Shown here piece by piece: positions 3,276 to 59,428 of a DNA stretch of 64,000 bases. The stretch lies in sequence record NC_054929.1; one strand, 5' to 3'. The notes under the pieces are model-generated. The model had not been told where the DNA came from, did not search any database, and saw nothing but the letters and a program-made list of their open reading frames with translations. Source of the DNA: Escherichia phage PE37. The translations under genes were made by a program, and so were the position numbers. Positions within the stretch are counted from its first letter, which is position 1. The number at the start of each line of letters is the position of its first letter.

Positions 3276-3857
3276 ATGGCGAGTTTAATTTTTACTTATG
3301 CAGCAATGAATGCTGGAAAATCTGCTTCTCTTTTGACTGCTGCACATAATTATAAAGAACGTGGAATGAGTGTATTAGTTCTTAAGCCTGCTATTGATAC
3401 TCGCGATTCTGTCTGTGAAGTTGTTTCTCGCATTGGAATTAAACAGGAAGCGAATATTATTACAGATGATATGGATATTTTCGAGTTCTATAAATGGGCT
3501 GAAGCACAAAAAGATATTCATTGTGTATTTGTAGATGAAGCTCAGTTTTTAAAAACTGAACAAGTGCATCAATTGAGCCGAATTGTTGATACATATAATG
3601 TTCCTGTTATGGCTTATGGATTAAGGACTGATTTCGCTGGAAAATTGTTTGAAGGTTCTAAAGAACTTTTAGCGATTGCAGATAAACTTATTGAACTAAA
3701 GGCAGTTTGTCATTGCGGCAAAAAAGCGATTATGACAGCTCGATTAATGGAAGATGGAACACCAGTTAAAGAAGGTAATCAAATCTGTATTGGTGATGAA
3801 ATTTATGTTTCTTTGTGCAGAAAACATTGGAATGAATTAACTAAAAAGCTCGGTTAG
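3276..3857 (+). CDS. tk: thymidine kinase
   Basis: 193 aa, P-loop NAGKSASL, near-identical to recalled T4 Tk. Confidence 0.95.
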   Translation: MASLIFTYAAMNAGKSASLLTAAHNYKERGMSVLVLKPAIDTRDSVCEVVSRIGIKQEANIITDDMDIFEFYKWAEAQKDIHCVFVDEAQFLKTEQVHQLSRIVDTYNVPVMAYGLRTDFAGKLFEGSKELLAIADKLIELKAVCHCGKKAIMTARLMEDGTPVKEGNQICIGDEIYVSLCRKHWNELTKKLG

Positions 3858-3899
3858 TGCAAAAGTTATAAATAGGTTTATCTAACTAAAGGGGTATAT

Positions 3900-4112
3900 A
3901 TGCTACAATTAACTGAAAAGCAACTTCGCAATCTTACTGTTCTTCAATTAGATGAAATTCGTAGGGAAGTTGGAAATATCATTTCAGCTTTGCGTCGAGA
4001 AGTATCACTCAACCAATCTCCGGCAGACTATACTAGATTGCGAAATTTTGAAAAATACCTTGATAAAGTTAAGGCCGTGCATCGGCATAAAGTAAATACA
4101 GGACAAAAATGA
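3900..4112 (+). CDS. hypothetical protein (70 aa), rI.1-like by position
   Basis: Track ORF with RBS GGGG upstream. Confidence 0.5.
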
Positions 4113-4124
4113 TAGGAGGCCTTT

Positions 4125-4418
4125 ATGGCCTTAAAAGCAACGGCACTATTTGCCATGCTAGGATTAGCGTTTGCTTTATCTCCACCGATTGAAGCGAATG
4201 TCGATCCTCATTTTGATAAATTTATGGAATCTGGCATTAGACATGTTTATATGCTTTTTGAAAATAAAAGCGTAGAATCATCTGAACAGTTCTATAGTTT
4301 TATGCGAACGACCTATAAAAATGACCCGTGCTCTTCCGATTTTGAATGTATAGAGCGAGGCGCGGAGATGGCACAATCATACGCTAGAATTATGAACATT
4401 AAATTGGAGACTGAATGA
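4125..4418 (+). CDS. rI: RI lysis-inhibition regulator (antiholin), periplasmic
   Basis: 97 aa with signal-anchor; near-identical to recalled T4 RI. Confidence 0.85.
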   Translation: MALKATALFAMLGLAFALSPPIEANVDPHFDKFMESGIRHVYMLFENKSVESSEQFYSFMRTTYKNDPCSSDFECIERGAEMAQSYARIMNIKLETE

Positions 4419-4801
4419 AATTCAGCGACTTTTCACAAAGTGGAAAACCTTCAAAGGCAGATGAATACTTAGGTTTATTAATGGCTGCACAAGCTTATTT
4501 TCATTCTGCACATTTTGAAACTAAAAGTTATGCTAGACACAAAGCATACGATTTTATTTTCTCCGAGTTGCCAGATTTGATTGATAAATTTGGTGAGCAA
4601 TATTTGGGGTATTCTGGTAGAAAATACACACCTTCAATTCCAGATGCCAGTAAACTTCCTACCGACACAATTAAAATGATTGATCGCATACTAGACCAAT
4701 CTAACAGCATTTATAAAGAAATGCCTCCAGCCATCCAAAGCACGATAGATGATATTACTGGAATGTTTTACCAGAGTAAATATCTTCTTTCCCTCGAATA
4801 A
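4415..4801 (+). CDS. hypothetical protein (128 aa), rI.-1-like by position
   Basis: Track ORF, ATGA overlap with rI. Confidence 0.55.
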
Positions 4802-4805
4802 CATT

Positions 4806-4829
4806 AGTCTCCTTCGGGAGACTTTTTTC
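4806..4829 (+). terminator. intrinsic terminator (UUCG-loop hairpin + T-run)
   Basis: agtctcc-ttcg-ggagact followed by tttttt. Confidence 0.65.
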
Positions 4830-4838
4830 ATTTTACCG

Positions 4839-4868
4839 GTTTACTTTCCATTTGAGCTGTGATACTAT
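4839..4868 (+). promoter_or_regulatory. T4-type early promoter
   Basis: gtttactttccatttgagctgtgatactat; follows terminator (PeSL-like arrangement). Confidence 0.55.
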
Positions 4869-4896
4869 ACAACTATCGGATAAAGAGGAGAACATC

Positions 4897-5085
4897 ATGA
4901 AAATTGAAGCACTTAATCAAGAAGGAAATATCTACGTCATTATTAATGGTGATTTTTTCGTCGACATGGATGAAGTTACTAGTGAAGAACTTGTAGAACT
5001 TCTTAAGAAACGTTATAATATGTGTGATGAAGTTGCAACTCACATGGCGTGTGCAATATTCTCTCTTTCATATGTGGTGGAATAA
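4897..5085 (+). CDS. hypothetical small protein (62 aa)
   Basis: Track ORF 4852..5085 trimmed to ATG 4897 with AGAGGAG RBS. Confidence 0.5.
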
Positions 5086-5288
5086 TGATTAGTATTGAAC
5101 AAGCAGATAAAATTAAGGAATTAGTGGCTTCAATTCGTAAAGCAGATGAAGAGCTGATTGACTTTGATTGGTATTCATCGGGTATTTCTAATAAAGGCAT
5201 TAAAGACTTTGAAACTAAAGTGGATAATGCTATAGAAGCGTTAGATATGTTTCTTGATGAAATTATCGATCATAATACAAGAGTGTAA
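5085..5288 (+). CDS. hypothetical acidic small protein (67 aa)
   Basis: Track ORF 5049..5288 trimmed to ATG 5085 (ATGA overlap). Confidence 0.5.
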   Translation: MISIEQADKIKELVASIRKADEELIDFDWYSSGISNKGIKDFETKVDNAIEALDMFLDEIIDHNTRV

Positions 5289-5290
5289 GT

Positions 5291-5485
5291 ATGCTAACAC
5301 GCGAACAGTTTGAAAAAATCATTAAATTAGCACGTGATATTGAAATAGATTCATATCAATTAGCAGTTGAGCATTGTGAAGGATATTCATACGACGGTAT
5401 AGAAGCAGCTAAAAAGGATTTGGATAAATCTAAAGCTAAGCTAGTTCAATATCTTGAAATGATTAGGTGGAATAATGAAAACTGA
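5291..5485 (+). CDS. hypothetical small protein (64 aa)
   Basis: Track ORF. Confidence 0.5.
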   Translation: MLTREQFEKIIKLARDIEIDSYQLAVEHCEGYSYDGIEAAKKDLDKSKAKLVQYLEMIRWNNEN

Positions 5486-5999: not shown

Positions 6000-6542
6000 A
6001 TGAAAGCTGTAATTGAAACAACTGATTTGTTCGGTAATCTAGTTATCGAAAAACGCGGTAATGTATATGTTCTGACGCAGGAAGACGATAGTATTATTAT
6101 TCTTCCTATGGAACTGGCTGCGATTTTATCTTATGCTCCCTCAAGAGTTACCGGTGTAACTAATATTACAGACGACCTCCAAGTTCGTTTTTATCGTGGC
6201 CTTTACGGCGGTAATATTGAAACTGAATTTATGTGTCTTTCTATCAACAATTGGGCAACATTCGTTGCCAAGGTGAAAGAATTCTTGGAATCTGAAACAG
6301 TCGAAACACCCGAAAAGGCTAAACTTCAATGGGCTAAAGATCGCGGTGCTAGCATTATTAATCCAGTAGCTGCAAATTATACTACGACTTTGGATGTCAA
6401 GACTTCTTATGAAGATGGCGATGTCGTACTTGTTCGCCAAATTGATGATTCTCGAGCACATATTGTCACATTTACCAAAGATGAAGCTATTGCACTAAAG
6501 ACTTATCTTGATTCTGTCATTCCAACTATGATTTCAAAGTGA
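6000..6542 (+). CDS. hypothetical protein (180 aa), paralog of the next ORF
   Basis: Track ORF 5988..6542 trimmed to ATG 6000; C-terminus resembles that of 6549..7070. Confidence 0.6.
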   Translation: MKAVIETTDLFGNLVIEKRGNVYVLTQEDDSIIILPMELAAILSYAPSRVTGVTNITDDLQVRFYRGLYGGNIETEFMCLSINNWATFVAKVKEFLESETVETPEKAKLQWAKDRGASIINPVAANYTTTLDVKTSYEDGDVVLVRQIDDSRAHIVTFTKDEAIALKTYLDSVIPTMISK

Positions 6543-6548
6543 GGAAAT

Positions 6549-7070
6549 ATGTTTATTTCAAGTGGAAGTGGTTTAATTCGTGTTGAATTTAAAAATGACA
6601 TCTTTCTTATTCAAGGAGATGATATTATTAAAATGAGTTATGACGAAATCAAGAAAATTTGTCATGCTCTTGAAAGTCATGGAAAAGTGAACGCTGTTAT
6701 TGATATTGGCGATTTATGGGTGACACTTTATGAAGTATCCGAAGGATTTAACATTGAAGATGAAAATAACATTTTAGCTATTGATAAAAGAACTGATTTG
6801 TTTGATGTATTAAAAGTTTATGAACAGTCAAATGGCGGAAGAAAAGCTGTATTGATTTATCAAAAACCGCATTCATGTGGAACTGCTTCAATCATTTCAA
6901 ATATTGAAGGCGAAGTTGATACTTATATGTGTGTTTTAAAAGCTGGTGGTGACCGTCATCCGGATTTTATTTCTATTCGTCAAAACAATGGAGAAATTTC
7001 ATTGTCAAAATCAGAAGCTGAAGCTATGATTAAGTATTTAACAACCGTTACGCCTTCAATGAAAGGATAG
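6549..7070 (+). CDS. hypothetical protein (173 aa), paralog of the previous ORF
   Basis: Track ORF; shared C-terminal motif E-A-x-A-x-x-K-Y-L-x-x-V-x-P-x-M. Confidence 0.6.
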   Translation: MFISSGSGLIRVEFKNDIFLIQGDDIIKMSYDEIKKICHALESHGKVNAVIDIGDLWVTLYEVSEGFNIEDENNILAIDKRTDLFDVLKVYEQSNGGRKAVLIYQKPHSCGTASIISNIEGEVDTYMCVLKAGGDRHPDFISIRQNNGEISLSKSEAEAMIKYLTTVTPSMKG

Positions 7071-7072
7071 TT

Positions 7073-7534
7073 ATGATTATTAATGAAAACTCTTGGCACT
7101 ATAAATTATTCAAATTGTTTAACGATGAATGGCAACGACCTAAGACACTATGTGCATACTTTTGGTCTATTGTTATCCCTACATTTTTCGTTTCTTTTTT
7201 CGGATGCACTATACTCGCAGGTCTAACTATCATCTGTGCAGAAATCATACAGAAATGGCTTATTTTTGGTAGTTTATGGACTCTTATTCCATCAGCATTT
7301 ATACTTGCTATTTTGCTTGTTTTACTTATTATCGGTTCATTTGTTATTCCTGTACATTTGCATGAAAAATATAAAGATTATAAATGGAAAAAGGATTATG
7401 CTTTACACGTAGAAAATATTGATAGAGCGTATAAAGGTTTACCTCCTATTCAACCCAAGAAATCTATTATCGTCGAATTTTTAAAAGCGCGTAAAGCTAA
7501 AGTATGTCCTGTTATTGAATATAAGGCTGAATGA
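7073..7534 (+). CDS. predicted membrane protein (153 aa, 2-3 TM helices)
   Basis: Track ORF; long hydrophobic stretches. Confidence 0.6.
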   Translation: MIINENSWHYKLFKLFNDEWQRPKTLCAYFWSIVIPTFFVSFFGCTILAGLTIICAEIIQKWLIFGSLWTLIPSAFILAILLVLLIIGSFVIPVHLHEKYKDYKWKKDYALHVENIDRAYKGLPPIQPKKSIIVEFLKARKAKVCPVIEYKAE

Positions 7535-8544
7535 TGAAAACAGTAATGAAAAGTTATTTTGGTAGTCATCTTTATGGAACTTCTACCCCAGAATCTGATG
7601 TAGATTTTAAAGAAATCTTTGTTCCTCCTGCTCGCGATATTCTTATTGGAAATGTCAAAGAGCATATGAGTAAAAACACTAACAACACATCATCTAAAAA
7701 CACTAAAGATGATATTGACCATGAACTATACAGTCTTAAGTATTTCTTTAAATTAGCAGCAGATGGTGAAACTGTAGCGTTAGATATGCTTCACACTCCG
7801 CCTGAACTAGTGGTTAAATCTGATTTGCCTGATGTATGGAAGTTTATTCAAGACAATCGTTCTCGTTTTTATACGACTAACATGAAATCCTACTTAGGAT
7901 ATGTTCGCAAGCAAGCTTCTAAATACGGTGTTAAGGGTTCTCGTTTGGCTGCATTACGTGATGTATTGAAAGTAGTTAATCAAATCCCCGATCAGTGGGT
8001 TGATTACCGAGAAGATGGAACACAAGGACAACGTCGCACTAAAGTTGAAGATATTAAGCATCGTCTTCCAGAAAACGAATTCTGTGAATGGGTGTTCCAT
8101 AATCATGAGAAAACAGGTCCACAAACGTTCTACACTGTATTGGGTCGTAAATATCAGACAACGCTTTCTCTTATTGAGCTTAAGCAGTCTTTGAATAAAC
8201 TTGATGCTGAATATGGTGAACGCGCTCGTAAGGCTGAAGCCAATGAAGGTATTGACTGGAAAGCTCTGAGCCATGCTTGTCGTGGTGGACTCCAACTATT
8301 GGAAATTTACAAAACTGGCGACTTAGTTTATCCACTCCAAGATGCTCCATTTATTCTCGACGTGAAGCTGGGTAAACATCCATTTAAAACTGTTCAAGAG
8401 TTTTTGGAAGATGTGGTCGATCAAGTAGAAGCAGCATCTACTGAAGCTTCTAAGAATGGTATGCCTAAAACAGTAGATATGAGCTTTTGGAATAATTTCC
8501 TCGAACAGGTTTATCTTGAAAACCACCGAAGTTATTATAAATGA
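7531..8544 (+). CDS. Pol-beta-superfamily nucleotidyltransferase-like protein (337 aa)
   Basis: N-terminal GS-x9-SDVD nucleotidyltransferase motif; ATGA overlap with upstream ORF. Confidence 0.6.
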   Translation: MMKTVMKSYFGSHLYGTSTPESDVDFKEIFVPPARDILIGNVKEHMSKNTNNTSSKNTKDDIDHELYSLKYFFKLAADGETVALDMLHTPPELVVKSDLPDVWKFIQDNRSRFYTTNMKSYLGYVRKQASKYGVKGSRLAALRDVLKVVNQIPDQWVDYREDGTQGQRRTKVEDIKHRLPENEFCEWVFHNHEKTGPQTFYTVLGRKYQTTLSLIELKQSLNKLDAEYGERARKAEANEGIDWKALSHACRGGLQLLEIYKTGDLVYPLQDAPFILDVKLGKHPFKTVQEFLEDVVDQVEAASTEASKNGMPKTVDMSFWNNFLEQVYLENHRSYYK

Positions 8545-8546
8545 TA

Positions 8547-8570
8547 GGGAGCCTTCGGGCTCCCTTTTTA
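8547..8570 (+). terminator. intrinsic terminator (UUCG-loop hairpin + T-run)
   Basis: gggagcc-ttcg-ggctccc followed by ttttta. Confidence 0.65.
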
Positions 8571-8593
8571 TTTCAAAAATTTTTCACAAAGTT

Positions 8594-8623
8594 GTTTACA
8601 AGCATAAAGCTTTATGGTACTAT
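8594..8623 (+). promoter_or_regulatory. T4-type early promoter with conserved leader
   Basis: gtttacaagcataaagctttatggtactat, then conserved leader acaactatcaactgatacggatttggagaataaaATG. Confidence 0.6.
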
Positions 8624-8657
8624 ACAACTATCAACTGATACGGATTTGGAGAATAAA

Positions 8658-9626
8658 ATGAAAACTGTAACTATCAATAAGGGTATCTACTTCGGTAAAG
8701 AAATCTCTGGAACTTTTGAGCTCTTAGGCGAATGGTTCCCAGATAATGCTCCGGTAGATGCACAAGGAGATGGTAAAGTTTTTGTTGAAATTGACGGTAA
8801 GCGTCGCGGTGTTTGGGTTTACAAATCAGACATTTCATATGATGGTGTAAAAGTTGAAGAAGTTAAAGAATCGTATGAAGATATGAAAACCCGCATTAAT
8901 AAAAGATTTAATGTTATGGGAATGATGACGAATGGTATTATTAATGGAAATATTCGTTCATTAATTATCTCTGGCGCAGCAGGTATTGGTAAAACGTATT
9001 CTTTAGATAAAGCTTTAAATAAAGCAAATGATATTGGATACATTGAATATAAAAGCATTAATGGTAAAATCTCTGGTATTGGTCTTTATGAGCAGCTTTG
9101 GAATAATCGTGAAGAGAATTCTGTCCTTTTGATTGATGATGTGGATGTTTTCTCTGATATGGACATTCTTAATCTTCTGAAAGCTGCTCTGGACACTGGA
9201 GAGACCCGTAAAGTCTGCTGGAGCACCGCATCTTCTTACTTAGAAGAAAAAGGCATTGAGCGTGAGTTTGAATTTAAAGGAACGATTGTTTTTATCACAA
9301 ACGTTGACATTGACCGCGAATTAGACCGTGGTACTAAACTTGCTCCACATTTACAAGCATTAGTGTCCCGCTCAGTTTATTTGGATTTGGGTGTTCACAC
9401 TAATGAAGAAATTATGGTCAGGGTTGAAGATGTTATTCTTTCAACTGACATGATGCAAAAGCGCGGTCTTTCTGATGAAGAAACTTATAAAGCATTATCA
9501 TGGATGAAAGTCAATGTTAATCGTTTACGCAATGTTTCACTGCGTACTGCTCTTTATCTTGCTGACTTTATTATGACCGACAAAAACGGTTGGGAAGAAA
9601 TTGCTACGGTTACTCTTCTGAAATAA
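8658..9626 (+). CDS. AAA+/P-loop ATPase-like protein (322 aa)
   Basis: Walker A SGAAGIGKT and Walker B VLLIDDVD; track ORF trimmed to ATG after conserved leader. Confidence 0.6.
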   Translation: MKTVTINKGIYFGKEISGTFELLGEWFPDNAPVDAQGDGKVFVEIDGKRRGVWVYKSDISYDGVKVEEVKESYEDMKTRINKRFNVMGMMTNGIINGNIRSLIISGAAGIGKTYSLDKALNKANDIGYIEYKSINGKISGIGLYEQLWNNREENSVLLIDDVDVFSDMDILNLLKAALDTGETRKVCWSTASSYLEEKGIEREFEFKGTIVFITNVDIDRELDRGTKLAPHLQALVSRSVYLDLGVHTNEEIMVRVEDVILSTDMMQKRGLSDEETYKALSWMKVNVNRLRNVSLRTALYLADFIMTDKNGWEEIATVTLLK

Positions 9627-9728
9627 ATTCATAAGAGGACTTCTAAGACAAAAAGGCAGTTCAGAAATAGATTATATGGACTGCCATCAAAAAGATGACT
9701 AGAATTAAACTGGTAAATGGAGGTAAAG

Positions 9729-10031
9729 ATGTTATACTCAAAAGCTCGTGAAATTTATGAAACTAAAATTAAAGACGCGGTTCATCAGTTCGCAACGACA
9801 ATGCGTTGGACAAATGACTGGGAATACTCCAAGAATCATAAGAAGCCCTTGGTGACAAGAAAGGCTCATATGTTAGTGTTAATAGACCGTGAGCAGATTA
9901 AAGCCCGAGAAGCCCTCCAGAATCATAAAAAGGCTGCCTTTGAATGGTTTATGGATAACACTGCTCCTGAGACTAAGAAAGCAGTGAGCGCTTGGTTCAG
10001 TGGAAAAAATTGTGAAAGAAGTTTCTTTTAG
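9729..10031 (+). CDS. hypothetical protein (100 aa)
   Basis: Track ORF 9717..10031 trimmed to ATG 9729 with GGAGG RBS. Confidence 0.5.
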   Translation: MLYSKAREIYETKIKDAVHQFATTMRWTNDWEYSKNHKKPLVTRKAHMLVLIDREQIKAREALQNHKKAAFEWFMDNTAPETKKAVSAWFSGKNCERSFF

Positions 10032-10033
10032 TT

Positions 10034-10063
10034 GTTTACAAGACTGTTCCTCTGTGGTACTAT
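10034..10063 (+). promoter_or_regulatory. T4-type early promoter with conserved leader
   Basis: gtttacaagactgttcctctgtggtactat + acaactatcaact leader. Confidence 0.55.
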
Positions 10064-10091
10064 ACAACTATCAACTACGGAGGAACAGAAA

Positions 10092-10619
10092 ATGAACGCT
10101 AAAGATATTTTCAACTTGGTAAACTACAATGATGGTAAATTTAAATCTGAAGCACAAAGTAAGTTCTTTAATGACATCTCAATCGGAGGTGAAATCACTG
10201 TTGATGGAGGACAAATTTACAAATCCCGTTGGAATTGGATCGTTATTATTGATGAGATTGGTATTGTAGAAATTTACAAAAATACGAATAAAAATCGTAC
10301 ATTACACTGGTCTCGTGATACTAACGAACAGTACAAAAAGGATAAAGCATCTAAGTTATCTCGTGTAACTCAAGAAGATATTGAGTTCATCAAGAAAGAT
10401 ATTTTGATGTATGATAACTTAATTGCTGAAGAGCAAGCTGTTATTGATAAATTTGATGAGATTAAAGCTTCTCATAAAATTCCTGATTTTATGAAAGAAT
10501 CAGTAAATGAACGATACACTCTCATTTCAGAGCGTATTGAAACTTACAAAAAGCAAAGAGCTGAACGCCAGAATACTCTTCGGAAGTTTGAAGAACGGTT
10601 AAAGACGGTACTTGCATAA
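10092..10619 (+). CDS. hypothetical protein (175 aa) with C-terminal coiled coil
   Basis: Track ORF trimmed to ATG 10092 with GGAGGAACAG RBS. Confidence 0.55.
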   Translation: MNAKDIFNLVNYNDGKFKSEAQSKFFNDISIGGEITVDGGQIYKSRWNWIVIIDEIGIVEIYKNTNKNRTLHWSRDTNEQYKKDKASKLSRVTQEDIEFIKKDILMYDNLIAEEQAVIDKFDEIKASHKIPDFMKESVNERYTLISERIETYKKQRAERQNTLRKFEERLKTVLA

Positions 10620-10621
10620 CC

Positions 10622-10646
10622 GCTTTATACCAAGGATGGTATAATG
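10622..10646 (+). promoter_or_regulatory. promoter (MotA-box-like GCTTTAT + TATAAT)
   Basis: cgctttataccaaggatggtataatgg. Confidence 0.4.
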
Positions 10647-10674
10647 GTTCTAAGCCCTTTTAATTGAGATTATT

Positions 10675-11082
10675 ATGAAACAGCTGATAATTAAAAGATT
10701 GAATTTATTGATATGTTGTTTATGTATAGTAATTGCATATGGTTATTACGCAATTAATGATTATATGCATTATAAAGATTATGATGTTACTGTAGTTAAT
10801 ACCCTTACAGGAACTCAAGGAAAGGGGTCTAGTTTATCGTTTATTGCCGTATATGAACTCAAAGACGGTTATAGATTTAGCGAATATATTTCCCCAGAGA
10901 TGTATTCATCAATAGAAAAAGGCGATAATATTACTGTAAGTTTACGTCCTTTCGACGTAAAACAGACATTGTTTGATAATATTGTTTGGTTCTTTGGAAT
11001 GGTATTAGTTCAATCTGTATGCGGTGCTTATATAGTCTTTTCCATCATATTCTGCGTATTTAGTAAAATTGAAATTGAGTGA
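10675..11082 (+). CDS. predicted membrane protein (135 aa)
   Basis: Track ORF; N- and C-terminal hydrophobic helices. Confidence 0.55.
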   Translation: MKQLIIKRLNLLICCLCIVIAYGYYAINDYMHYKDYDVTVVNTLTGTQGKGSSLSFIAVYELKDGYRFSEYISPEMYSSIEKGDNITVSLRPFDVKQTLFDNIVWFFGMVLVQSVCGAYIVFSIIFCVFSKIEIE

Positions 11083-11089
11083 GGAAAAT

Positions 11090-11977
11090 ATGTCAGTAGT
11101 AATTAATAATGTCAATGCAGTAATTAAATCTTTAGTTAATAAAAAATTGAATGAATGGACTGTACTTCGTCGTGGAGAGCCAGATAAATTTTTTCATAGA
11201 TTTAACCCAACTTTGGATTTGAATGTTATTGACAGAGATGTTCATGCAGAAATTTTAGATAAGTTTAAAGTTGATATTGGATTTGGATTAGAAAAACATT
11301 TACAGCGAACAAACGGGTCTGGAATGGGTTTATCTAATCGCATCATGAAAGCCCTTAATAAAATTGGAGCATTGTCTCGTATTAACGCGAGTGAAATCCT
11401 TCGTAATTATAATAAAGGATATGACCTTTATGGCCGACTAATGCCGAAATTGTCATTCGATCAAATGATTGCGGATTTGTGGGAAAATCAACGACGATTA
11501 TTAGCATTAGGCGCTAGATTAGCTAAAGGTCTAGATAAACAAATGATTTTTAAAACTAATAATACAGAAGACCTTAAATGCTTTAAATTTAGTACTCGTG
11601 GAGATGACTATTACATCAGAGCTCACTCTACAGATTATGTCAATATGGGGCATCATCTCTGTTTAGCTTTTGAAGTTTTAAAAGAAGCCGGAACATTAGA
11701 ATATTCATCTGGGGCAAAATGCCCGATTGGTTCAAATTGTATTTTAATTTATCGCCCGAATGAATCCAGTTCAACTAAATTGCCTACAAAACCTGTACCA
11801 GTTCGTAATAATGAAAAACATTCTGAGCAAATTGATTATTTTAATAAGCAAATTGAAGAGCTGAATATTTCTATTCAACAATATGATGATGAAATTTTCA
11901 GACTATCTGGACTGAGTAGTAAAGCTAAATCTGAGCGTGAAAAGTTAATTAAAATTGTTGATTTACTTAAATCTTAA
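11090..11977 (+). CDS. hypothetical protein (295 aa), C-terminal coiled coil
   Basis: Track ORF trimmed to ATG 11090 with GAGGAAAA RBS. Confidence 0.6.
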   Translation: MSVVINNVNAVIKSLVNKKLNEWTVLRRGEPDKFFHRFNPTLDLNVIDRDVHAEILDKFKVDIGFGLEKHLQRTNGSGMGLSNRIMKALNKIGALSRINASEILRNYNKGYDLYGRLMPKLSFDQMIADLWENQRRLLALGARLAKGLDKQMIFKTNNTEDLKCFKFSTRGDDYYIRAHSTDYVNMGHHLCLAFEVLKEAGTLEYSSGAKCPIGSNCILIYRPNESSSTKLPTKPVPVRNNEKHSEQIDYFNKQIEELNISIQQYDDEIFRLSGLSSKAKSEREKLIKIVDLLKS

Positions 11978-11985
11978 GGAACACC

Positions 11986-13005
11986 ATGAAAACTCGTTCT
12001 CAAATTGAAGATATGGTTCGTAATGCCAGCTATACTCGTGATGTTATGACATTTTTGTGCCAAAATAATTTAGACCCTGATAAAGTTAATCGTGATATTC
12101 ACTTTAAATATATGAATAGCAGTGAATGGTTACGTCATTTTAGTAAAGCGGGATATATTACACAAATGACTGCTCGTGAGCAGCTCACCGATTTCTGTAA
12201 AACTATTGATTATAAAAATCCTCTATTTGTTCAAGGCGTTGGTCAAAGTAAGGTCGATTTATCATCTGGATTTTTCAATCCAAATCATTATCGTATTGAA
12301 TGGAGATTTATTGCTCTGTTCCGTAGACAATTAAAGCAAATTTTGTCTACTGCTAGTCGATTAAAAGGCTCTGATATTAACTTAAAGAATCTGAAATTTG
12401 ATGGTTATACTCTTCAGATGGAAGTAAGACCGTTAAAAGAAAATAATAGAACTGCACGAATTAGCTTTAAACCTAATACAAAAAATTCTCTTTCAATTTG
12501 TGAATGCCTTAAATCACAGTTGACAGAAGCATTTAAGTATATGGATGTTGTTGCTGCTGTTCAATCTAAGATTTTACCTCGTTTTGAACGATTTAAGTTA
12601 GATACAACATCATATGAACTTGATATGATCGTTTCATTTAAATACGATTTTTTGAGAAAGGACGAAGTCCCGCAAGAGAAAAAGCAAGAAGTGCAAGATA
12701 ACTTAAATTTATCTAATTACTCATCAAACGATCCTAAATTTTGGATGTATAGTTCAGGCAATAAAGATGCATGGAAATTCAATAAAGTGAATTTTCTTCC
12801 TATTGAAAATCCGAGTCTTAAACCTGTTGAAAAATGGCACGCGGATGCGATTGGGAAGTCTATCAAGGCAGTAGATGATGAACTCGTTAAAGCAACTAAT
12901 GAAGTGTTAGAAGCTGAAAAGATGCTAGAAAAAGCTCAAGAAAAAGTCAAAAATCTCACGAAGCAACGTTCTAAACTGAACAATGCACTAAATGCACTGA
13001 ACTAG
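11986..13005 (+). CDS. hypothetical protein (339 aa), C-terminal coiled coil
   Basis: Track ORF, AGGAA RBS. Confidence 0.6.
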   Translation: MKTRSQIEDMVRNASYTRDVMTFLCQNNLDPDKVNRDIHFKYMNSSEWLRHFSKAGYITQMTAREQLTDFCKTIDYKNPLFVQGVGQSKVDLSSGFFNPNHYRIEWRFIALFRRQLKQILSTASRLKGSDINLKNLKFDGYTLQMEVRPLKENNRTARISFKPNTKNSLSICECLKSQLTEAFKYMDVVAAVQSKILPRFERFKLDTTSYELDMIVSFKYDFLRKDEVPQEKKQEVQDNLNLSNYSSNDPKFWMYSSGNKDAWKFNKVNFLPIENPSLKPVEKWHADAIGKSIKAVDDELVKATNEVLEAEKMLEKAQEKVKNLTKQRSKLNNALNALN

Positions 13006-13032
13006 TTTACTTTGCCACAAGGATGTGGTATA
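13005..13032 (+). promoter_or_regulatory. T4-type early promoter
   Basis: gtttactttgccacaaggatgtggtataat. Confidence 0.55.
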
Positions 13033-13062
13033 ATGTTCTTACTTTCTACTGAGGAGATTAAT

Positions 13063-14064
13063 ATGACTCGTAACGAATATATCAAATCATTCAATAGCGT
13101 TATTGATGATAAAGCTATACCGATGTTTGGCCAAAATAGCGTTCTTTCTATTATCAATCAATGGCTCAATAGTGTTGATGCAGGTATTGTTTCTTCTGCT
13201 AAATTTATTCATGAAATTCGTAAAATTTCTAGCCGTGTAGATAAAGATAATATCAAGAAAACCTTTAAAGAGTCTCGTCTTCTTTCATATTTGGTTAATC
13301 GGGATATTCTTGGTAATTTTGGGAAAGAAATTAAACGAACCAAAGATGTAGTAGGATATAATTGGTTCGGTGATGTTAATTCTTATCATCTTAATAATAA
13401 AGAAGACCCTGAGAATATTTTTACTCGTCGTTGGATTAGTAATTTCAGACTTTTTAAAGGACAAATTCTAAAATCAGCTTCTAAATTATGTTATGGCGAT
13501 TATCGTCAAATTCATCCTTTGGCTTCTGATATGATTATCGTAAAAGAATATGAGCTTGATGAAAATAAAGTAGCTATTTTTGTGAATTATGGATTTTTTA
13601 CACCAAACGCTAATCAAAAGAATATTAATAAATTTTTCTCAATTGCTAGTGATATAACTCGACAATTAGAGACTGCACTACTTTGTATGGAAACAGTAGA
13701 AAATATTCATACATATCCTTTTAAGAATATATGCGGATGGGAAGGATATAAAATTGTAATTAGTCTTCGTGAAGTGAAATGTGCTTATTCACCTACTGAT
13801 AAAGAAATTTACCAACAAAAATGTGATGAAATTGTGAATACTCCTAAAGAAGAAACTACCCTTGAGGAACTAATGGATAATCTTGATGATTCACCTGAAC
13901 CGGTAGAAATTCGTCCAGAAGTTATTGCATTAGAAAAAGCTTATAAAGAAGTTCTAGAAATTTCTAATAAAGCGCAGAAAGAATATGAGCAGGCTAAAAA
14001 GATTTGGGAAGAATCCGTTAATCGTCTTGATCGTCTTGAACAAGCTTTAAAGTTAATTAAGTAA
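13063..14064 (+). CDS. hypothetical protein (333 aa), C-terminal coiled coil
   Basis: Track ORF trimmed to ATG 13063 with GAGGAG RBS. Confidence 0.6.
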   Translation: MTRNEYIKSFNSVIDDKAIPMFGQNSVLSIINQWLNSVDAGIVSSAKFIHEIRKISSRVDKDNIKKTFKESRLLSYLVNRDILGNFGKEIKRTKDVVGYNWFGDVNSYHLNNKEDPENIFTRRWISNFRLFKGQILKSASKLCYGDYRQIHPLASDMIIVKEYELDENKVAIFVNYGFFTPNANQKNINKFFSIASDITRQLETALLCMETVENIHTYPFKNICGWEGYKIVISLREVKCAYSPTDKEIYQQKCDEIVNTPKEETTLEELMDNLDDSPEPVEIRPEVIALEKAYKEVLEISNKAQKEYEQAKKIWEESVNRLDRLEQALKLIK

Positions 14065-14116
14065 TTTAAAGCCAAGGATGGCTCGGAGTATAAATCATTA
14101 ACCAAGTGAGAAGAAC

Positions 14117-15043
14117 ATGAAAACTCGTAAACATTATATTGATTATTTTGACAGTCTTATTACTAAACACCGTAATTATCAAATCGGACACAGAGCAGTA
14201 ATCAATAATATTCTTCGTGATTTTTTAGACTATATTGGTTGGGAAAACCATATTTGTAAAGATACACAAAATGCGTATTCACATTCTCTTGGTTCTTTGC
14301 TCGAGTGGTTCAAGCGTTCCCGATTACTATCTTCTGTGATAGCTGTTAATAATGTTAAAAAATTTATGTATCCAATCTACATTAAGACTAATGTATCAAA
14401 TGCTAGTGTTGTTACATTTAATATTATTAACGACGTGAAAAGAACTTATTTAGAAGAATGGTTTTCTAAAGATAGTAAAGAAAAATTTGCTAGTGAATTT
14501 TCACACGAATTCAATAATAACGTAAATATGCTTTTTAAGCATTCTCGTAGACTGTTTTGTCATGGTGATAACCGTACTATTAATGTGAATGTAAAAGACT
14601 GGGTTACGGCTAAATTTATTCCATCGTCCCAGAATGGACAATTTGAATTGTCAATTATCGTTTGCGCTCCGCATGAGATATATAAAAATCTTCCGTATAT
14701 GAAACCACGCGAAGCTAATAAACACAATGAAACTATTAGTTCTTTGGCTTATAATTTGCGCGTGTTATTATCTGATATGGATGTAGTCAAATCCTTTGAT
14801 GATAATACGAATTATGGTCTTTCACTGTTTGAAACTAAATTTGTTATTAAATTAAAGGACCCTAGTGAATTTAAACCTATACCAAAATCCAATCATGGAA
14901 ATGATACTATGAAAGAAGAACGTGAATATCTCAATGTCCGTTTGACTGAAGTTGAAAAACAAATTGAAGAGCATACTAAAGTTCTTAAGGCTTTAACCGC
15001 CAAAGCAAATGGTTTACGTAATGCTATTGAGGTATTGAAATGA
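14117..15043 (+). CDS. hypothetical protein (308 aa), C-terminal coiled coil
   Basis: Track ORF; starts MKTR like ORF 11986. Confidence 0.6.
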   Translation: MKTRKHYIDYFDSLITKHRNYQIGHRAVINNILRDFLDYIGWENHICKDTQNAYSHSLGSLLEWFKRSRLLSSVIAVNNVKKFMYPIYIKTNVSNASVVTFNIINDVKRTYLEEWFSKDSKEKFASEFSHEFNNNVNMLFKHSRRLFCHGDNRTINVNVKDWVTAKFIPSSQNGQFELSIIVCAPHEIYKNLPYMKPREANKHNETISSLAYNLRVLLSDMDVVKSFDDNTNYGLSLFETKFVIKLKDPSEFKPIPKSNHGNDTMKEEREYLNVRLTEVEKQIEEHTKVLKALTAKANGLRNAIEVLK

Positions 15044-15429
15044 AAAAGCGTTTATTAGAAGACATTGCAGCTTCAAGTAATTCCAGTTTAATTAAAATTA
15101 TTATGGCTGGTGAGGAAGATGATATGGAAATGCGTGGAAAGATTCACGGCTGCGACGATTTAGATTTTAAACCTCCAGCATGGGATGCTATTATGGCTAT
15201 GGTTGAACGACGTGAAAGAGCTTCTAAAAACGTTCCTAATTGCCCTGAATGCGATACTGAACAAGTTCAATTGATTAACTGGCGTAAACCAGAGCTTGAA
15301 TATAAATGCCGTCAATGTAAACATAAATTCAGTAAGCATGCTCCGGAAATGGTTAAATTGCCTGACTCTACTGAGTTCTTTAAAGAACTTGTGAGTGTTC
15401 AACCAATGCCTAATAATATTTTGGATTAA
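15040..15429 (+). CDS. zinc-ribbon protein (129 aa; CPEC-x17-CRQC)
   Basis: Track ORF; two CxxC pairs. Confidence 0.6.
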
Positions 15430-17305: not shown

Positions 17306-17779
17306 ATGTTATTGACTGGCAAATTATATAAAGAAGAAAAACAGAAATTTTATGATGCACAAAATGGTAAATGTTTAATTTGCCAACGAGAACTAAATCC
17401 TGACGTTCAAGCTAATCATCTTGATCATGACCATGAATTAAATGGACCAAAAGCAGGAAAAGTACGTGGATTGCTCTGTAATCTCTGCAATGCCGCGGAA
17501 GGTCAAATGAAGCATAAATTTAATCGTTCTGGCTTAAAGGGACAAGGCGTTGATTATCTTGAATGGTTAGAAAATTTACTTACTTATTTAAAATCCGATT
17601 ACACCCAAAATAATATTCATCCTAACTTTGTTGGAGATAAATCAAAGGAATTTTCTCGTTTAGGAAAAGAGGAAATGATGGCTGAGATGCTTCAAAGAGG
17701 ATTTGAATATAATGAATCTGACACTAAAACACAATTAATAGCTTCATTTAAGAAGCAGCTTAGAAAGAGTTTAAAATGA
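17306..17779 (+). CDS. 49: endonuclease VII (Holliday junction resolvase)
   Basis: 157 aa, Cys-rich zinc site and HLDHDH motif; matches recalled T4 gp49. Confidence 0.9.
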   Translation: MLLTGKLYKEEKQKFYDAQNGKCLICQRELNPDVQANHLDHDHELNGPKAGKVRGLLCNLCNAAEGQMKHKFNRSGLKGQGVDYLEWLENLLTYLKSDYTQNNIHPNFVGDKSKEFSRLGKEEMMAEMLQRGFEYNESDTKTQLIASFKKQLRKSLK

Positions 17780-19593
17780 CAATTGAAAAAGAAATTGAAG
17801 GATTGATTCATAAAACTAATAAAGACCTTTTAAACGAGAATGCTAATAAAGATTCTCGTGTTTTTCCAACTCAACGGGACCTTATGGCTGGTATTGTGTC
17901 TAAACACATTGCCAAAAATATGGTCCCGTCTTTTATTATGAAAGCGCATGAAAGCGGAATTATTCATTTCCATGATATTGATTATTCCCCTGCTCTTCCA
18001 TTTACTAATTGCTGTTTAGTAGATTTAAAAGGAATGCTTGAGAACGGATTTAAGCTTGGTAATGCACAGATTGAAACTCCTAAATCAATTGGTGTTGCTA
18101 CTGCAATTATGGCACAAATTACTGCACAGGTTGCTTCCCATCAATACGGCGGAACGACTTTTGCTAATGTAGATAAAGTACTTTCTCCTTATGTTAAACG
18201 CACCTATGCAAAACATATTGAGGATGCAGAAAAATGGCAAATCGCTGATGCGTTGAATTATGCTCAATCTAAAACAGAAAAAGATGTATACGATGCATTC
18301 CAAGCTTATGAATATGAAGTAAATACTCTCTTTAGTTCAAACGGACAAACGCCTTTTGTAACAATTACATTTGGTACGGGAACTGACTGGACTGAACGAA
18401 TGATTCAGAAAGCAATTCTGAAAAATCGTATTAAAGGTCTCGGTCGTGATGGGATAACTCCTATTTTTCCTAAGCTTGTTATGTTCGTCGAAGAAGGCGT
18501 TAATCTTTACAAAGACGATCCGAATTACGACATTAAGCAACTTGCTCTAGAGTGCGCAAGCAAAAGGATGTATCCTGATATTATTTCAGCTAAGAACAAT
18601 AAAGCTATCACCGGCTCATCTATTCCTGTTTCTCCAATGGGTTGCCGCAGTTTCTTGAGTGTGTGGAAAGATTCAACCGGTAATGAAATTCTTGATGGAC
18701 GTAATAATCTCGGTGTTGTAACGCTGAATCTTCCTCGTATCGCATTAGATTCTTATATTGGAACACAGTTCAATGAACAGAAATTTATCGAATTGTTCAA
18801 TGAACGAATGGATTTATGTTTTGAAGCTTTGATGTGCAGAATTAGTTCCTTAAAAGGAGTTAAAGCGACTGTTGCTCCTATTCTTTACCAAGAAGGTGCA
18901 TTCGGGGTTCGTCTTAAACCTGATGACGATATAATTGAGTTATTTAAAAACGGCAGAAGTTCAGTGTCTCTAGGATACATTGGTATTCACGAATTGAATA
19001 TTCTTGTCGGTCGTGATATTGGACGAGAAATTTTAACTAAAATGAATGCTCATCTTAAACAGTGGACTGAAAGAACCGGTTTTGCTTTTAGTTTGTATTC
19101 TACACCTGCTGAAAACCTGTGCTATCGCTTCTGTAAACTTGATACTGAAAAATATGGAAGTGTAAAGGATGTTACTGATAAAGGCTGGTACACTAACAGT
19201 TTCCACGTTTCAGTAGAAGAAAATATCACTCCGTTTGAAAAGATTTCTCGCGAAGCACCATATCATTTCATTGCGACAGGTGGCCACATTTCTTATGTTG
19301 AACTTCCTGATATGAAAAATAACTTAAAAGGTCTTGAGGCTGTATGGGATTATGCCGCACAACATTTAGATTATTTTGGTGTTAATATGCCGGTAGATAA
19401 ATGTTTTACATGCGGAAGTACCCATGAAATGACTCCTACTGAAAACGGATTTGTTTGTTCTATTTGTGGAGAAACTGATCCTAAAAAGATGAACACAATA
19501 AGAAGAACATGTGGTTATTTGGGAAATCCGAACGAACGCGGATTTAATCTCGGTAAAAATAAAGAAATCATGCATAGGGTTAAACACCAATGA
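17776..19593 (+). CDS. nrdD: anaerobic ribonucleoside-triphosphate reductase NrdD
   Basis: 605 aa, C-terminal glycyl-radical region RRTCGYLG; uninterrupted (no intron). Confidence 0.95.
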   Translation: MTIEKEIEGLIHKTNKDLLNENANKDSRVFPTQRDLMAGIVSKHIAKNMVPSFIMKAHESGIIHFHDIDYSPALPFTNCCLVDLKGMLENGFKLGNAQIETPKSIGVATAIMAQITAQVASHQYGGTTFANVDKVLSPYVKRTYAKHIEDAEKWQIADALNYAQSKTEKDVYDAFQAYEYEVNTLFSSNGQTPFVTITFGTGTDWTERMIQKAILKNRIKGLGRDGITPIFPKLVMFVEEGVNLYKDDPNYDIKQLALECASKRMYPDIISAKNNKAITGSSIPVSPMGCRSFLSVWKDSTGNEILDGRNNLGVVTLNLPRIALDSYIGTQFNEQKFIELFNERMDLCFEALMCRISSLKGVKATVAPILYQEGAFGVRLKPDDDIIELFKNGRSSVSLGYIGIHELNILVGRDIGREILTKMNAHLKQWTERTGFAFSLYSTPAENLCYRFCKLDTEKYGSVKDVTDKGWYTNSFHVSVEENITPFEKISREAPYHFIATGGHISYVELPDMKNNLKGLEAVWDYAAQHLDYFGVNMPVDKCFTCGSTHEMTPTENGFVCSICGETDPKKMNTIRRTCGYLGNPNERGFNLGKNKEIMHRVKHQ

Positions 19594-52853: not shown

Positions 52854-53099
52854 GTGGAAATAACTAAAGACCAGTTTTATCTGCTTCAAGATAAAGTGAG
52901 CGAAATTTATGAAATAGCTTATAGTAAAAATCGCAAAAACGTGAAAATTGAATCGGGAAAGTTAATGCTTCAATTGGAAGAAATTGAACGAGATTTAATT
53001 GCGTTAGAATTCTTTTGTGGTGAAGTGAAAACTGTTACAATCAGTGATTATGTTTTAGGTGAAATTAGCCATCTTTATAAGGCGGTTATTAATGATTGA
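52854..53099 (+). CDS. hypothetical protein (81 aa)
   Basis: Track ORF, GTG start with GAGGAAG RBS. Confidence 0.5.
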   Translation: MEITKDQFYLLQDKVSEIYEIAYSKNRKNVKIESGKLMLQLEEIERDLIALEFFCGEVKTVTISDYVLGEISHLYKAVIND

Positions 53100-53301
53100 A
53101 TTAAGTTTGCATCAGTTTAAATCTCTTGTGGCAAATGTTAAAGCTGTCATTCAAGAAAATTCAGGACCTGATAATGTTACTATTCGCGAAAAAGCTTTAA
53201 AGATAGTATACAGTCTTGAAGAGATACAAAAAGATATTGAATCTATGGCAAAATTTATTGATGAGCCCATTAATAAAGTTATATCCAAGATTATACTGTA
53301 G
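53092..53301 (+). CDS. hypothetical protein (69 aa)
   Basis: Track ORF 53059..53301 trimmed to ATG 53092. Confidence 0.5.
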   Translation: MIELSLHQFKSLVANVKAVIQENSGPDNVTIREKALKIVYSLEEIQKDIESMAKFIDEPINKVISKIIL

Positions 53302-57576: not shown

Positions 57577-59394
57577 ATGATTAAGAATGAAATTAAAATT
57601 CTGAGCGATATTGAACATATCAAAAAGCGTAGTGGCATGTATATTGGCTCTTCTGCTAATGAAATGCATGAGCGCTTTCTGTTTGGTAAATGGGAAAGTG
57701 TTCAGTATGTACCTGGTCTTGTTAAGCTCATTGATGAAATTATCGATAACTCAGTCGATGAAGGTATTCGTACTAAGTTTAAATTCGCGAATAAAATTAA
57801 TGTTACCATTAAAAATAATCAGGTAACAGTTGAAGATAACGGTCGTGGTATTCCACAAGCGATGGTTAAAACACCTACCGGTGAAGAAATTCCTGGTCCA
57901 GTTGCTGCTTGGACTATTCCAAAAGCAGGTGGTAACTTTGGTGATGATAAAGAACGTGTCACCGGTGGTATGAATGGTGTTGGTTCTAGTTTAACTAACA
58001 TTTTTTCTGTGATGTTTGTCGGTGAAACTGGCGATGGTCAAAATAATATTGTAGTTCGTTGTTCAAATGGTATGGAAAATAAATCCTGGGAAACTATTCC
58101 TGGAAAATGGAAAGGAACTCGTGTTACTTTCATTCCTGATTTTATGTCATTTGAAACTAATGAGCTGTCTCAGGTTTATCTTGATATTACACTGGATCGT
58201 CTCCAGACACTTGCTGTTGTTTATCCTGATATTCAATTTACCTTTAATGGTAAAAAGGTTCAGGGCAATTTTAAGAAATATGCACGACAGTATGATGAAC
58301 ACGCTATTGTTCAAGAACAAGAAAATTGTTCTATTGCGGTTGGTCGTTCACCGGATGGTTTTCGTCAATTAACTTATGTGAATAACATTCACACTAAGAA
58401 TGGTGGTCATCACATTGATTGTGTTATGGATGATATTTGTGAAGACCTTATTCCACAAATCAAACGTAAATTCAAAATTGATGTAACTAAAGCACGCGTT
58501 AAAGAATGTTTGACTATCGTTATGTTTGTTCGTGATATGAAAAACATGCGATTTGATTCTCAAACTAAAGAGCGTTTGACTTCTCCATTTGGCGAAATTC
58601 GTAGTCATATTCAGCTTGATGCTAAAAAGATTTCACGCGCTATTCTAAATAATGAAGCAATTTTAATGCCGATTATTGAAGCTGCGTTGGCTCGTAAATT
58701 GGCGGCAGAAAAAGCAGCAGAAACTAAAGCAGCTAAAAAGGCTTCTAAAGCTAAGGTTCATAAACATATCAAAGCGAATCTCTGTGGTAAAGATGCTGAC
58801 ACTACTCTTTTCTTGACTGAGGGTGATTCTGCTATCGGATATCTTATTGATGTTCGTGATAAAGAACTTCATGGTGGTTATCCATTGCGTGGTAAAGTTC
58901 TCAACAGTTGGGGTATGTCATATGCTGATATGCTTAAAAACAAAGAACTATTTGATATTTGCGCAATCACTGGATTAGTTCTTGGTGAAAAAGCTGAAAA
59001 CTTGAATTATCATAATATTGCTATTATGACCGATGCTGACCATGATGGTTTAGGAAGCATTTATCCTTCTCTGCTCGGATTTTTTAGTAATTGGCCAGAA
59101 TTGTTTGAGCAAGGACGAATTCGCTTTGTCAAAACTCCTGTAATCATCGCTCAGGTCGGTAAAAAACAAGAATGGTTTTATACAGTCGCTGAATATGAGA
59201 GTGCTAAAGATGCTCTACCTAAACATAGCATCCGTTATATTAAAGGACTTGGCTCTTTGGAAAAATCTGAATATCGTGAGATGATTCAAAATCCAGTATA
59301 TGATGTTGTTAAACTTCCTGAGAACTGGAAAGAGCTTTTTGAAATGCTCATGGGAGATAATGCTGACCTTCGTAAAGAATGGATGAGCCAGTAG
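57577..59394 (+). CDS. 39: DNA topoisomerase II large subunit gp39, fused form (ATPase + gene-60-equivalent C-terminus)
   Basis: 605 aa single ORF with GHKL ATPase motifs; T4 has split 39/60, T2/T6 have a fused gene. Confidence 0.9.
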   Translation: MIKNEIKILSDIEHIKKRSGMYIGSSANEMHERFLFGKWESVQYVPGLVKLIDEIIDNSVDEGIRTKFKFANKINVTIKNNQVTVEDNGRGIPQAMVKTPTGEEIPGPVAAWTIPKAGGNFGDDKERVTGGMNGVGSSLTNIFSVMFVGETGDGQNNIVVRCSNGMENKSWETIPGKWKGTRVTFIPDFMSFETNELSQVYLDITLDRLQTLAVVYPDIQFTFNGKKVQGNFKKYARQYDEHAIVQEQENCSIAVGRSPDGFRQLTYVNNIHTKNGGHHIDCVMDDICEDLIPQIKRKFKIDVTKARVKECLTIVMFVRDMKNMRFDSQTKERLTSPFGEIRSHIQLDAKKISRAILNNEAILMPIIEAALARKLAAEKAAETKAAKKASKAKVHKHIKANLCGKDADTTLFLTEGDSAIGYLIDVRDKELHGGYPLRGKVLNSWGMSYADMLKNKELFDICAITGLVLGEKAENLNYHNIAIMTDADHDGLGSIYPSLLGFFSNWPELFEQGRIRFVKTPVIIAQVGKKQEWFYTVAEYESAKDALPKHSIRYIKGLGSLEKSEYREMIQNPVYDVVKLPENWKELFEMLMGDNADLRKEWMSQ

Positions 59395-59397
59395 TTT

Positions 59398-59428
59398 ACT
59401 TTACCACAAGGATGTGGTATAATTAATT
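59398..59428 (+). promoter_or_regulatory. T4-type early promoter
   Basis: gtttactttaccacaaggatgtggtataat. Confidence 0.55.

Follow-up and report, generated by a model that had tools for sequence, protein, structure and literature searches.

Bacteriophage T4 is the best-studied phage, and our subject is a group of genes in one of its relatives: the nrdC.8 to nrdC.3 section of the accessory ('hyperplastic') early region of Escherichia phage PE37, a Tequatrovirus (T4-like) genome, which we analysed in a stretch of 64,000 nucleotides (nt) of record NC_054929.1, referred to below as the window. For one gene of this section a role has been described in T4. Neither E. coli ECOR17 nor MG1655 with the dsr1 gene of ECOR17 supports growth of T4 that has lost nrdC.5, and expression of nrdC.5 restores growth; nrdC.5 is described as an early gene whose loss is harmless on laboratory hosts (Srikant, Guegler and Laub 2022, PMC9391042). 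Dsr1 is an NAD-depleting defence whose sensor recognises the phage major capsid protein, a late product (bioRxiv 10.64898/2026.01.04.697583). A second phage protein acting against a SIR2-type NAD-depleting defence is DSAD1 of phage SPbeta, the anti-DSR2 protein, which is reported to block its target by binding it. We found no sequence or fold relation between DSAD1 and the nrdC proteins, and their targets differ, being DSR2 for DSAD1 and Dsr1 for NrdC.5; nor do we know of a coil-tail layout common to the two. Also among the closest systems are the tail terminator and tail completion proteins (lambda gpU-like fold) and the hyperplastic regions of T4-like phages with their shuffling of promoter/stem-loop (PeSL) elements (Comeau, Arbiol and Krisch 2014, PMC4122927).

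How does the PE37 locus compare with these? The open reading frame (ORF) at 11986-13005 is the ortholog of T4 NrdC.5, to which its residues 1-330 are 94.6% identical, and both are early, non-essential accessory genes; the T4 study gives no domain layout for NrdC.5, no coil, and no paralogy with nrdC.3, nrdC.4 and nrdC.6. Our analysis indicates, and of this we are highly confident, that nrdC.3, nrdC.4, nrdC.5 and nrdC.6 are tandem paralogs with one family layout, in which some 220-270 residues of alpha/beta globular domain are followed by a disordered, proline-rich or acidic linker of about 20 residues and then by a heptad helix of about 45 residues at the C-terminus. As in the PeSL regions, the array sits in a variable accessory block, with repeated early promoters with hairpins and with indels between phages. 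It differs from them in that the boundaries of the exchange that we see in nrdC.3 are intragenic, lying in the conserved N-terminus and in the coil tail, whereas the PeSL elements of PMC4122927 are intergenic. More generally, the nrdC array belongs with phage accessory counter-defence genes in a variable region and is not a new kind of system. The 5.1-kb stretch that holds the array matches 618 phage records, mostly T4-like phages of Escherichia and Shigella, the top match being 97% identical. Its ORFs, named by aligning the window to the annotated T4 genome, are the following.

10092-10619, plus strand: nrdC.8-like ORF, 175 amino acids (phrog_2274, E 6e-110; 97.7% identical to T4 NrdC.8)
10675-11082, plus strand: nrdC.7-like ORF, 135 amino acids (phrog_2547), hydrophobic at both ends
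11090-11977, plus strand: nrdC.6-like ORF, 295 amino acids (phrog_2257, E 2.8e-152)
11986-13005, plus strand: nrdC.5-like ORF, 339 amino acids (PF23882, DUF7235, E 1.6e-123; phrog_2351, E 4.5e-171)
13063-14064, plus strand: nrdC.4-like ORF, 333 amino acids (phrog_1435 at full length, E 5.5e-169)
14117-15043, plus strand: nrdC.3-like ORF, 308 amino acids (phrog_1435 at full length, E 1.9e-98), 91% identical to T4 nrdC.3

A first-pass annotation of the window had read five of these, all but nrdC.7, as consecutive ORFs each ending in a C-terminal coiled coil. The five are real ORFs on the plus strand, with lengths of 175, 295, 339, 333 and 308 amino acids, and each starts at an ATG and has a ribosome-binding site rich in purines; two begin with MKTR, as that annotation had it (those at 11986 and 14117), and the one at 13063 begins with MTR. 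They are not consecutive, however, since the coil-less nrdC.7, annotated in T4 as a predicted membrane protein, interrupts the row between nrdC.8 and nrdC.6. A heptad-like segment does close each of the five, although a coiled coil is a prediction from it.

The kinship of the four paralogs lies in their globular domains and becomes visible only with sensitive comparison. Pairwise BLASTP among the five proteins yielded a single link, and a marginal one, of nrdC.3 to nrdC.4 (E 0.007), so that profiles were needed. These two proteins both fall in phrog_1435 and in PF26897, and hhalign joins them with 98.2% probability. For nrdC.5, relatives at the matching position were found in Dhakavirus (dhabil gp149, E 1.7e-20) and Mosigvirus (UGJNEcP2 gp180, E 3e-13), and with these added the combined nrdC.3/nrdC.4 profile matches nrdC.5 with 93.6% probability (E 2e-7), residues 58-218 against 42-195, that is, inside the globular domain and outside the coil. 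Moreover, an exhaustive search with the nrdC.3/nrdC.4 profile turned up an intermediate sequence, P0263, which matches the nrdC.4, nrdC.3 and nrdC.5 profiles alike.

The most divergent paralog is nrdC.6. Its first comparison, family against family, gave hhalign probabilities of at most 7%; the merged profile of nrdC.3, nrdC.4 and nrdC.5 matches it with 87-91% probability (E 1e-6 to 4e-6), residues 26-161 against 37-150, again in the N-domain, with the shared motifs FKxSRLLSxLV/LxKxGxLSRxNA and IlKxAsKxxxGDxR/LLALGARLAxGxDKQ. Structure points the same way. A Foldseek search with the AlphaFold2 model of nrdC.4 matches nrdC.6 of phage JS10 (E 4e-5), and one common set of uncharacterised Straboviridae proteins of 300-370 amino acids, from phages of Enterobacter, Pectobacterium, Acinetobacter and Yersinia, comes up with both the nrdC.4 and the nrdC.6 model. 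The TM-scores are low (0.3-0.5), which we would put down to the long helix being free to point in any direction; in the two models the secondary-structure elements follow one another in nearly the same order. Globular-domain homology apart from the coil is thus found for all four, in the case of nrdC.5 by sequence profiles. No further ORF of the window belongs to the family.

The second element of the layout is the tail, for which we give the segments first.

10482-10616, plus strand: nrdC.8 heptad segment, about residues 131-175 (score 13.4, rank 2 of 109; z 3.0; periodicity p 0.0002)
11813-11974, plus strand: nrdC.6 C-terminal helices, residues 242-271 and 277-294, ending in ...KLIKIVDLLKS
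12856-13002, plus strand: nrdC.5 heptad segment, about residues 291-339 (score 14.4, rank 1 of 109; z 3.2; p 0.007), ending in ...KLNNALNALN
13915-14061, plus strand: nrdC.4 C-terminal helix, residues 285-333, ending in ...LEQALKLIK
14903-15040, plus strand: nrdC.3 heptad segment, about residues 263-308 (score 13.4; z 3.0), ending in ...LRNAIEVLK

The score is one of our own design rather than a published predictor: over the last 50 residues of each of the 109 non-overlapping ORFs of the window it rewards hydrophobic residues at positions a and d and polar or charged residues elsewhere, and penalises proline and glycine. By this measure the five tails, with scores of 12-14, take ranks 1, 2, 3, 5 and 6, and that of nrdC.7 scores only 2.2; the tails show the hydrophobic a/d pattern over at least four heptads, with helices predicted in the AlphaFold2 models of nrdC.4 and nrdC.6. 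When the last 45 residues of each protein were shuffled 1000 times, the observed score stood at z 3.0 for nrdC.8, 1.4 for nrdC.6, 3.2 for nrdC.5, 1.7 for nrdC.4 and 3.0 for nrdC.3, and for the three tails with z near 3 only 4 of 1000 shuffles were equally good. When each family is aligned, the hydrophobic period of 3.5 residues in its last 42 positions reaches significance, and does so for every one of the five (p 0.0002-0.018).

The models agree with such a tail. That of nrdC.4 (pLDDT 83.4) has a globular part at residues 1-258, a disordered segment at 259-284 and a free 48-residue helix at 285-332; that of nrdC.6 (pLDDT 77.9) has a folded domain, a low-confidence linker and then its two terminal helices, and in both models the terminal helices pack against nothing. 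Counted from the C-terminus, the consensus tails of nrdC.3 to nrdC.6 have an identical heptad register and share the terminal motif L-x-x-A/I-[LI]-x-x-L-K/N, the right-aligned consensus ends being NRLDRLEQALqLiK for nrdC.4, KQRSKLNNALNALN for nrdC.5 and AERQKlmdii.LLK for nrdC.6. The a and d positions, occupied by leucine, isoleucine, valine and alanine, are conserved across genera. Among distant orthologs the tail is better conserved than the N-domain in all four paralogs.

nrdC.3: tail identity 0.81, N-domain identity 0.59
nrdC.4: tail identity 0.62, N-domain identity 0.45
nrdC.5: tail identity 0.42, N-domain identity 0.24
nrdC.6: tail identity 0.65, N-domain identity 0.39

Two further observations concern tails. 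Ranks 4 and 7 of the 109 scores belong to the short ORFs at 53092-53301 (69 amino acids) and 59449-59652 (67 amino acids). In the T4 reference (AF158101), nrdC.6 is frameshifted near codon 258 (8067-8200 of the locus, corresponding to about 11860-11977 of the window), so that its annotated end is ...EELIFLFNNMMMKFSDYLD in place of the coil, and the intact tail ISIQQYDDEIFRLSGLSSKAKSEREKLIKIVDLLKS can be read in another frame; this frameshift is either a mutation of the laboratory strain or a sequencing error.

The third element is diversification, which the first-pass annotation had suggested and which a comparison across T4-like phages bears out. From one phage to another, copies have been gained or lost and some have fused, and the globular domain changes quickly. 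To Dhakavirus and Mosigvirus proteins the paralogs are 24-55% identical, against 77-90% for the flanking genes; an nrdC.3 ortholog is absent from Dhakavirus, and nrdC.4 from Mosigvirus. Phage ACG-C40 carries a natural deletion (6302-6713 of its stretch) between the nrdC.5 start and the nrdC.3 tail, which leaves a 71-residue nrdC.5 stub joined to the nrdC.3 tail and removes nrdC.4 together with most of nrdC.5 and nrdC.3, and the metagenomic ORF P0161 fuses nrdC.5 residues 146-271 to nrdC.3 residues 111-309. Together, the deletion and the fusion suggest recombination between paralogs. For nrdC.3 there are two allele classes, that of the window, with about 138 genomes at 90% identity or more, and another, with about 500 at 55-62%. 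For concreteness, consider phage slur11, whose nucleotide identity to the window is 0.69 in nrdC.3 and 0.95-0.995 in every neighbouring gene: along the sequence it stands at 0.99 at 14080, falls to 0.4-0.7 between 14260 and 14860 and is back at 0.88-0.99 from 14980, within the coil tail. Because this drop is so sharply bounded, the nrdC.3 globular domain (about 14200-14900, in a divergent stretch at 14200-14980) behaves as a cassette swapped between conserved ends.

A second divergent patch relative to slur11 lies in nrdC.2, at 15220-15400, where identity goes down to 0.07. The nrdC.2 of the window has 129 amino acids, of which residues 1-99 alone align with T4 nrdC.2 (77% identity); its C-terminal part is extended, and a zinc-ribbon is weakly matched at residues 87-101.

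The nrdC.3/nrdC.4 family is very narrow. The exhaustive search with its profile, through 1.84 billion representative proteins, returned 11 matches, all of them close relatives, and led to no family whose function is known. The fold and layout are old. Acinetobacter phage Acj61 belongs to another subfamily, and in it two adjacent genes between nrdC and nrdC.10 (3452-5472 of its stretch), p120 (330 amino acids) and p121 (304 amino acids), are Foldseek matches to the nrdC.4 and nrdC.6 models; their tails score 13.6 and 13.7 and end in ...LNKALEIMML and ...LAKALVV.... The locus is not present at 36-62 kb of Acj61.

How might proteins of this layout act? We propose that the tail would form a coiled coil and make each paralog a dimer or a higher oligomer, and that the variable globular domain would bind a host protein. 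Each paralog would be made early, before the late proteins that trigger host sensors, and each would neutralise a different host immune protein, the allele classes likewise being directed at other host defences. In the case of Dsr1, since the major capsid protein is a late product, a binder made early could occupy the sensor first. Because their paralog nrdC.5 counters Dsr1, nrdC.3, nrdC.4 and nrdC.6 are good candidates for anti-defence genes, and the guess of the first-pass annotation that the family acts against host defences thus holds for T4 nrdC.5 and for the other three would follow from kinship. As a whole, the explanation in terms of oligomeric early binders of host immune proteins seems to us reasonably probable. 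Oligomerisation through the tail we would likewise call probable; as for an anti-defence role of all four paralogs, we are evenly divided.

Several points weigh against this explanation. In single sequences, nrdC.6 (z 1.4) and nrdC.4 (z 1.7) have only a marginal heptad signal, and the nrdC.6 tail is modelled as two helices with a break at SGLSS, so that it might form a hairpin rather than one continuous coil. The sequence link of nrdC.6 to the others requires the merged profile, the pairwise hhalign probabilities between families being at most 13%. Anti-defence activity has been demonstrated for one paralog only, and for its T4 allele, to which the window allele has the 94.6% identity given above. 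Finally, the conserved terminal motif could mean a shared partner rather than self-association.

This last point leads to the main rival, in which the tail is a common docking helix: all four paralogs would bind one partner, be it a phage or a host protein or one another as hetero-oligomers, and the variable domains would deliver different activities. Docking would suit the finding that in every family conservation is highest in the tail, and the same end motif in four families as well as in Acj61 p120 and p121 exceeds what plain homo-oligomer coils usually need. However, we found no candidate partner, the leucine, isoleucine, valine and alanine at a and d are typical of self-associating coils, and paralogs have been lost singly with the others kept. 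We regard docking onto one partner as unlikely, although it deserves to be kept in view.

Less probable still is a host-independent phage function, such as a scaffold in nucleotide metabolism or early gene regulation, in which the divergence would reflect weak constraint and not an arms race. The array does lie in the neighbourhood of the nrd genes, nrdC.3, nrdC.4 and nrdC.6 have no known function, and their mRNAs are ordinary early transcripts. But the nrdC.5 phenotype is host-specific and anti-defence, its loss being harmless on laboratory hosts (PMC9391042); ACG-C40 does without nrdC.4 and most of nrdC.5 and nrdC.3; and a bounded nrdC.3 cassette amid flanks that are 95-99% identical is not what simple drift would produce. 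Nor did any enzyme or nucleic-acid-binding family match: the five ORFs matched no enzyme, DNA-binding, catalytic or defence family in Pfam, NCBIfam and PADLOC, and searches of PDB sequences gave no solved relative of the five proteins.

One could go further than our proposal of early binders and imagine an ancient Straboviridae-wide system at a fixed locus, with a coil scaffold and swappable heads that would imitate virion folds (tail-terminator-like) and so blind sensors such as Dsr1 or those of Avs type early in infection, each paralog or allele class being matched to a different sensor. We think this a distant prospect. A Dsr1 trigger related to tail proteins would suit such a fold lead, and was rejected, the preprint giving the major capsid protein.

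It is very improbable, moreover, that all five ORFs, nrdC.8 included, form one family, as the first-pass annotation proposed. The tail of nrdC.8 is of the same kind and the gene heads the array, and the nrdC.4 model weakly matches a 175-residue protein of Klebsiella phage KPV15 (Foldseek, E 4e-3). Against this, hhalign of nrdC.8 with every family profile gave at most 1.2% probability, so that sequence profiles reveal no membership in the superfamily. The protein is half as long as the others, with an N-terminal part that looks strand-rich from its sequence, and it is far better conserved, at 66-100% identity in 740 phage genomes. As a bridge between nrdC.8 and the family the KPV15 protein was dropped, relaxed tblastn having given no Klebsiella phage relative of nrdC.8. 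Since profile links join four proteins and leave out nrdC.8, we take nrdC.3 to nrdC.6 as the paralogs and nrdC.8 as sharing only the type of tail: the idea of one diversifying family holds for these four, whose N-terminal domains, where compared as models (nrdC.4 and nrdC.6), share their Foldseek matches, and is not supported for the fifth. By its sequence nrdC.8 would be a separate, well-conserved early protein with a heptad pattern in its helical C-terminal half and no detectable kinship to the paralogs. In T4, the GGAG Shine-Dalgarno sequence of nrdC.8 is moderately cleaved by RegB (PMC1702504).

An artefactual origin of the coiled coils, from the many lysines, asparagines, glutamates and isoleucines that an AT-rich genome encodes, can practically be set aside: the window has a G+C content of 32-37% and several of its short ORFs outside the array score fairly high, but five of the six best tails among the 109 ORFs fall in this 5-kb stretch, the periodicity exceeds that of composition-preserving permutations, different genera conserve positions a and d, and AlphaFold2 predicts long helices.

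What was known before comprises the genes themselves, the nrdC.5 phenotype and three families of unknown function. In the databases and literature that we searched we found no prior record of the four genes as one superfamily, of the coil tail as a conserved element, of the cassette-type exchange in nrdC.3 or of the syntenic relatives in distant T4-like phages. The proteins of the window are full-length members of PF26897, PF26899 and PHROGs 1435, 2351 and 2257: nrdC.5 matches PF23882 over profile positions 1-307 of 307 with 412.5 bits (gathering cutoff 30), the cluster representatives 93-96% identical to nrdC.3 and nrdC.4 each carry PF26897, and PF26899 is carried by 105 of 105 homologues of nrdC.6, including those 98% identical. 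The databases thus hold three or four separate families of unknown function, which profile-profile and fold comparison here unite in one superfamily. Many GenBank records call all nrdC.N ORFs 'thioredoxin'. None of the five ORFs has a thioredoxin family match in Pfam or NCBIfam, so that none belongs to the thioredoxins or glutaredoxins by this test, and neither the nrdC.4 nor the nrdC.6 model has the thioredoxin fold; since no thioredoxin domain is present, the label was apparently copied from the locus name. The databases therefore stand to be corrected on two counts, in that the three separate families belong together and that the 'thioredoxin' label is wrong.

Further consequences follow for experiment. 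Paralogy with nrdC.5 predicts that nrdC.3, nrdC.4 and nrdC.6 each counter a defence system of some wild hosts, which makes these genes testable, and the domain layout opens the mechanism of NrdC.5 to direct experiment. The bounded exchange of the nrdC.3 cassette shows a route by which such genes diversify.

Expression of the array can be considered from three elements in the spacers.

10035-10063, plus strand: T4 early-type promoter upstream of nrdC.8 (TTTACA, 17 nt, TACTAT, with TG)
10622-10645, plus strand: element upstream of nrdC.7 (GCTTTA, 12 nt, TATAAT)
13006-13034, plus strand: T4 early-type promoter upstream of nrdC.4 (TTTACT, 17 nt, TATAAT, with TG), with a hairpin in the spacer

The first has almost the same sequence as the one that precedes nrdC.10 (8595-8623). 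The element upstream of nrdC.7 is a candidate that we take to resemble a MotA-dependent middle promoter by the T4 consensus. That several of the five ORFs have a promoter of their own, as had been claimed, is true of nrdC.8 and nrdC.4; nrdC.3 has only a weak TATAAAT upstream, and no promoter was found upstream of nrdC.6 (11090) and nrdC.5 (11986), each with a gap of only 8 nt to the preceding gene. These two are probably transcribed from the element upstream of nrdC.7 or from the nrdC.8 promoter.

The array is flanked by nrdC.2, nrdC.1 and nrdC downstream of nrdC.3, and on its other side by the following genes.

7531-8544: nrdC.11
8658-9626: nrdC.10
9717-10031: nrdC.9

In the stretch 7531-9626, nrdC.11 matches the RlaP nucleotidyltransferase family (E 3e-11) and nrdC.10 has weak matches to AAA/STAND-type NTPases, all under the curated cutoffs; both genes are conserved far better than the paralog array. 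Further along, nrdD (17776-19593) is an uninterrupted ORF of 605 amino acids in the window, unlike its T4 counterpart, which the I-TevII intron divides.

Some of the promoter sequences recur. The 30-mer GTTTACTTTGCCACAAGGATGTGGTATAAT that forms the early promoter at 13005-13034 is found again at 59393-59422, 46 kb away, with one mismatch, and the ORF at 59449-59652 with the rank 7 tail score sits directly downstream of this repeated hairpin promoter. The hairpin core CAAGGATG of this promoter occurs also in the spacers between nrdC.8 and nrdC.7 (10631-10638) and between nrdC.4 and nrdC.3 (14073-14080); the window has 5 copies of it, where chance would give 1.6. A strong stem-loop terminator at 8546-8565, followed by an early promoter, makes up a PeSL-like pair (8546-8623). 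Finally, nrdC.10 and nrdC.8 have almost the same promoter and leader (GTTGTTTACAAG ... TGGTACTATACAACTATCAAC; 8546-8623 and 10030-10075).

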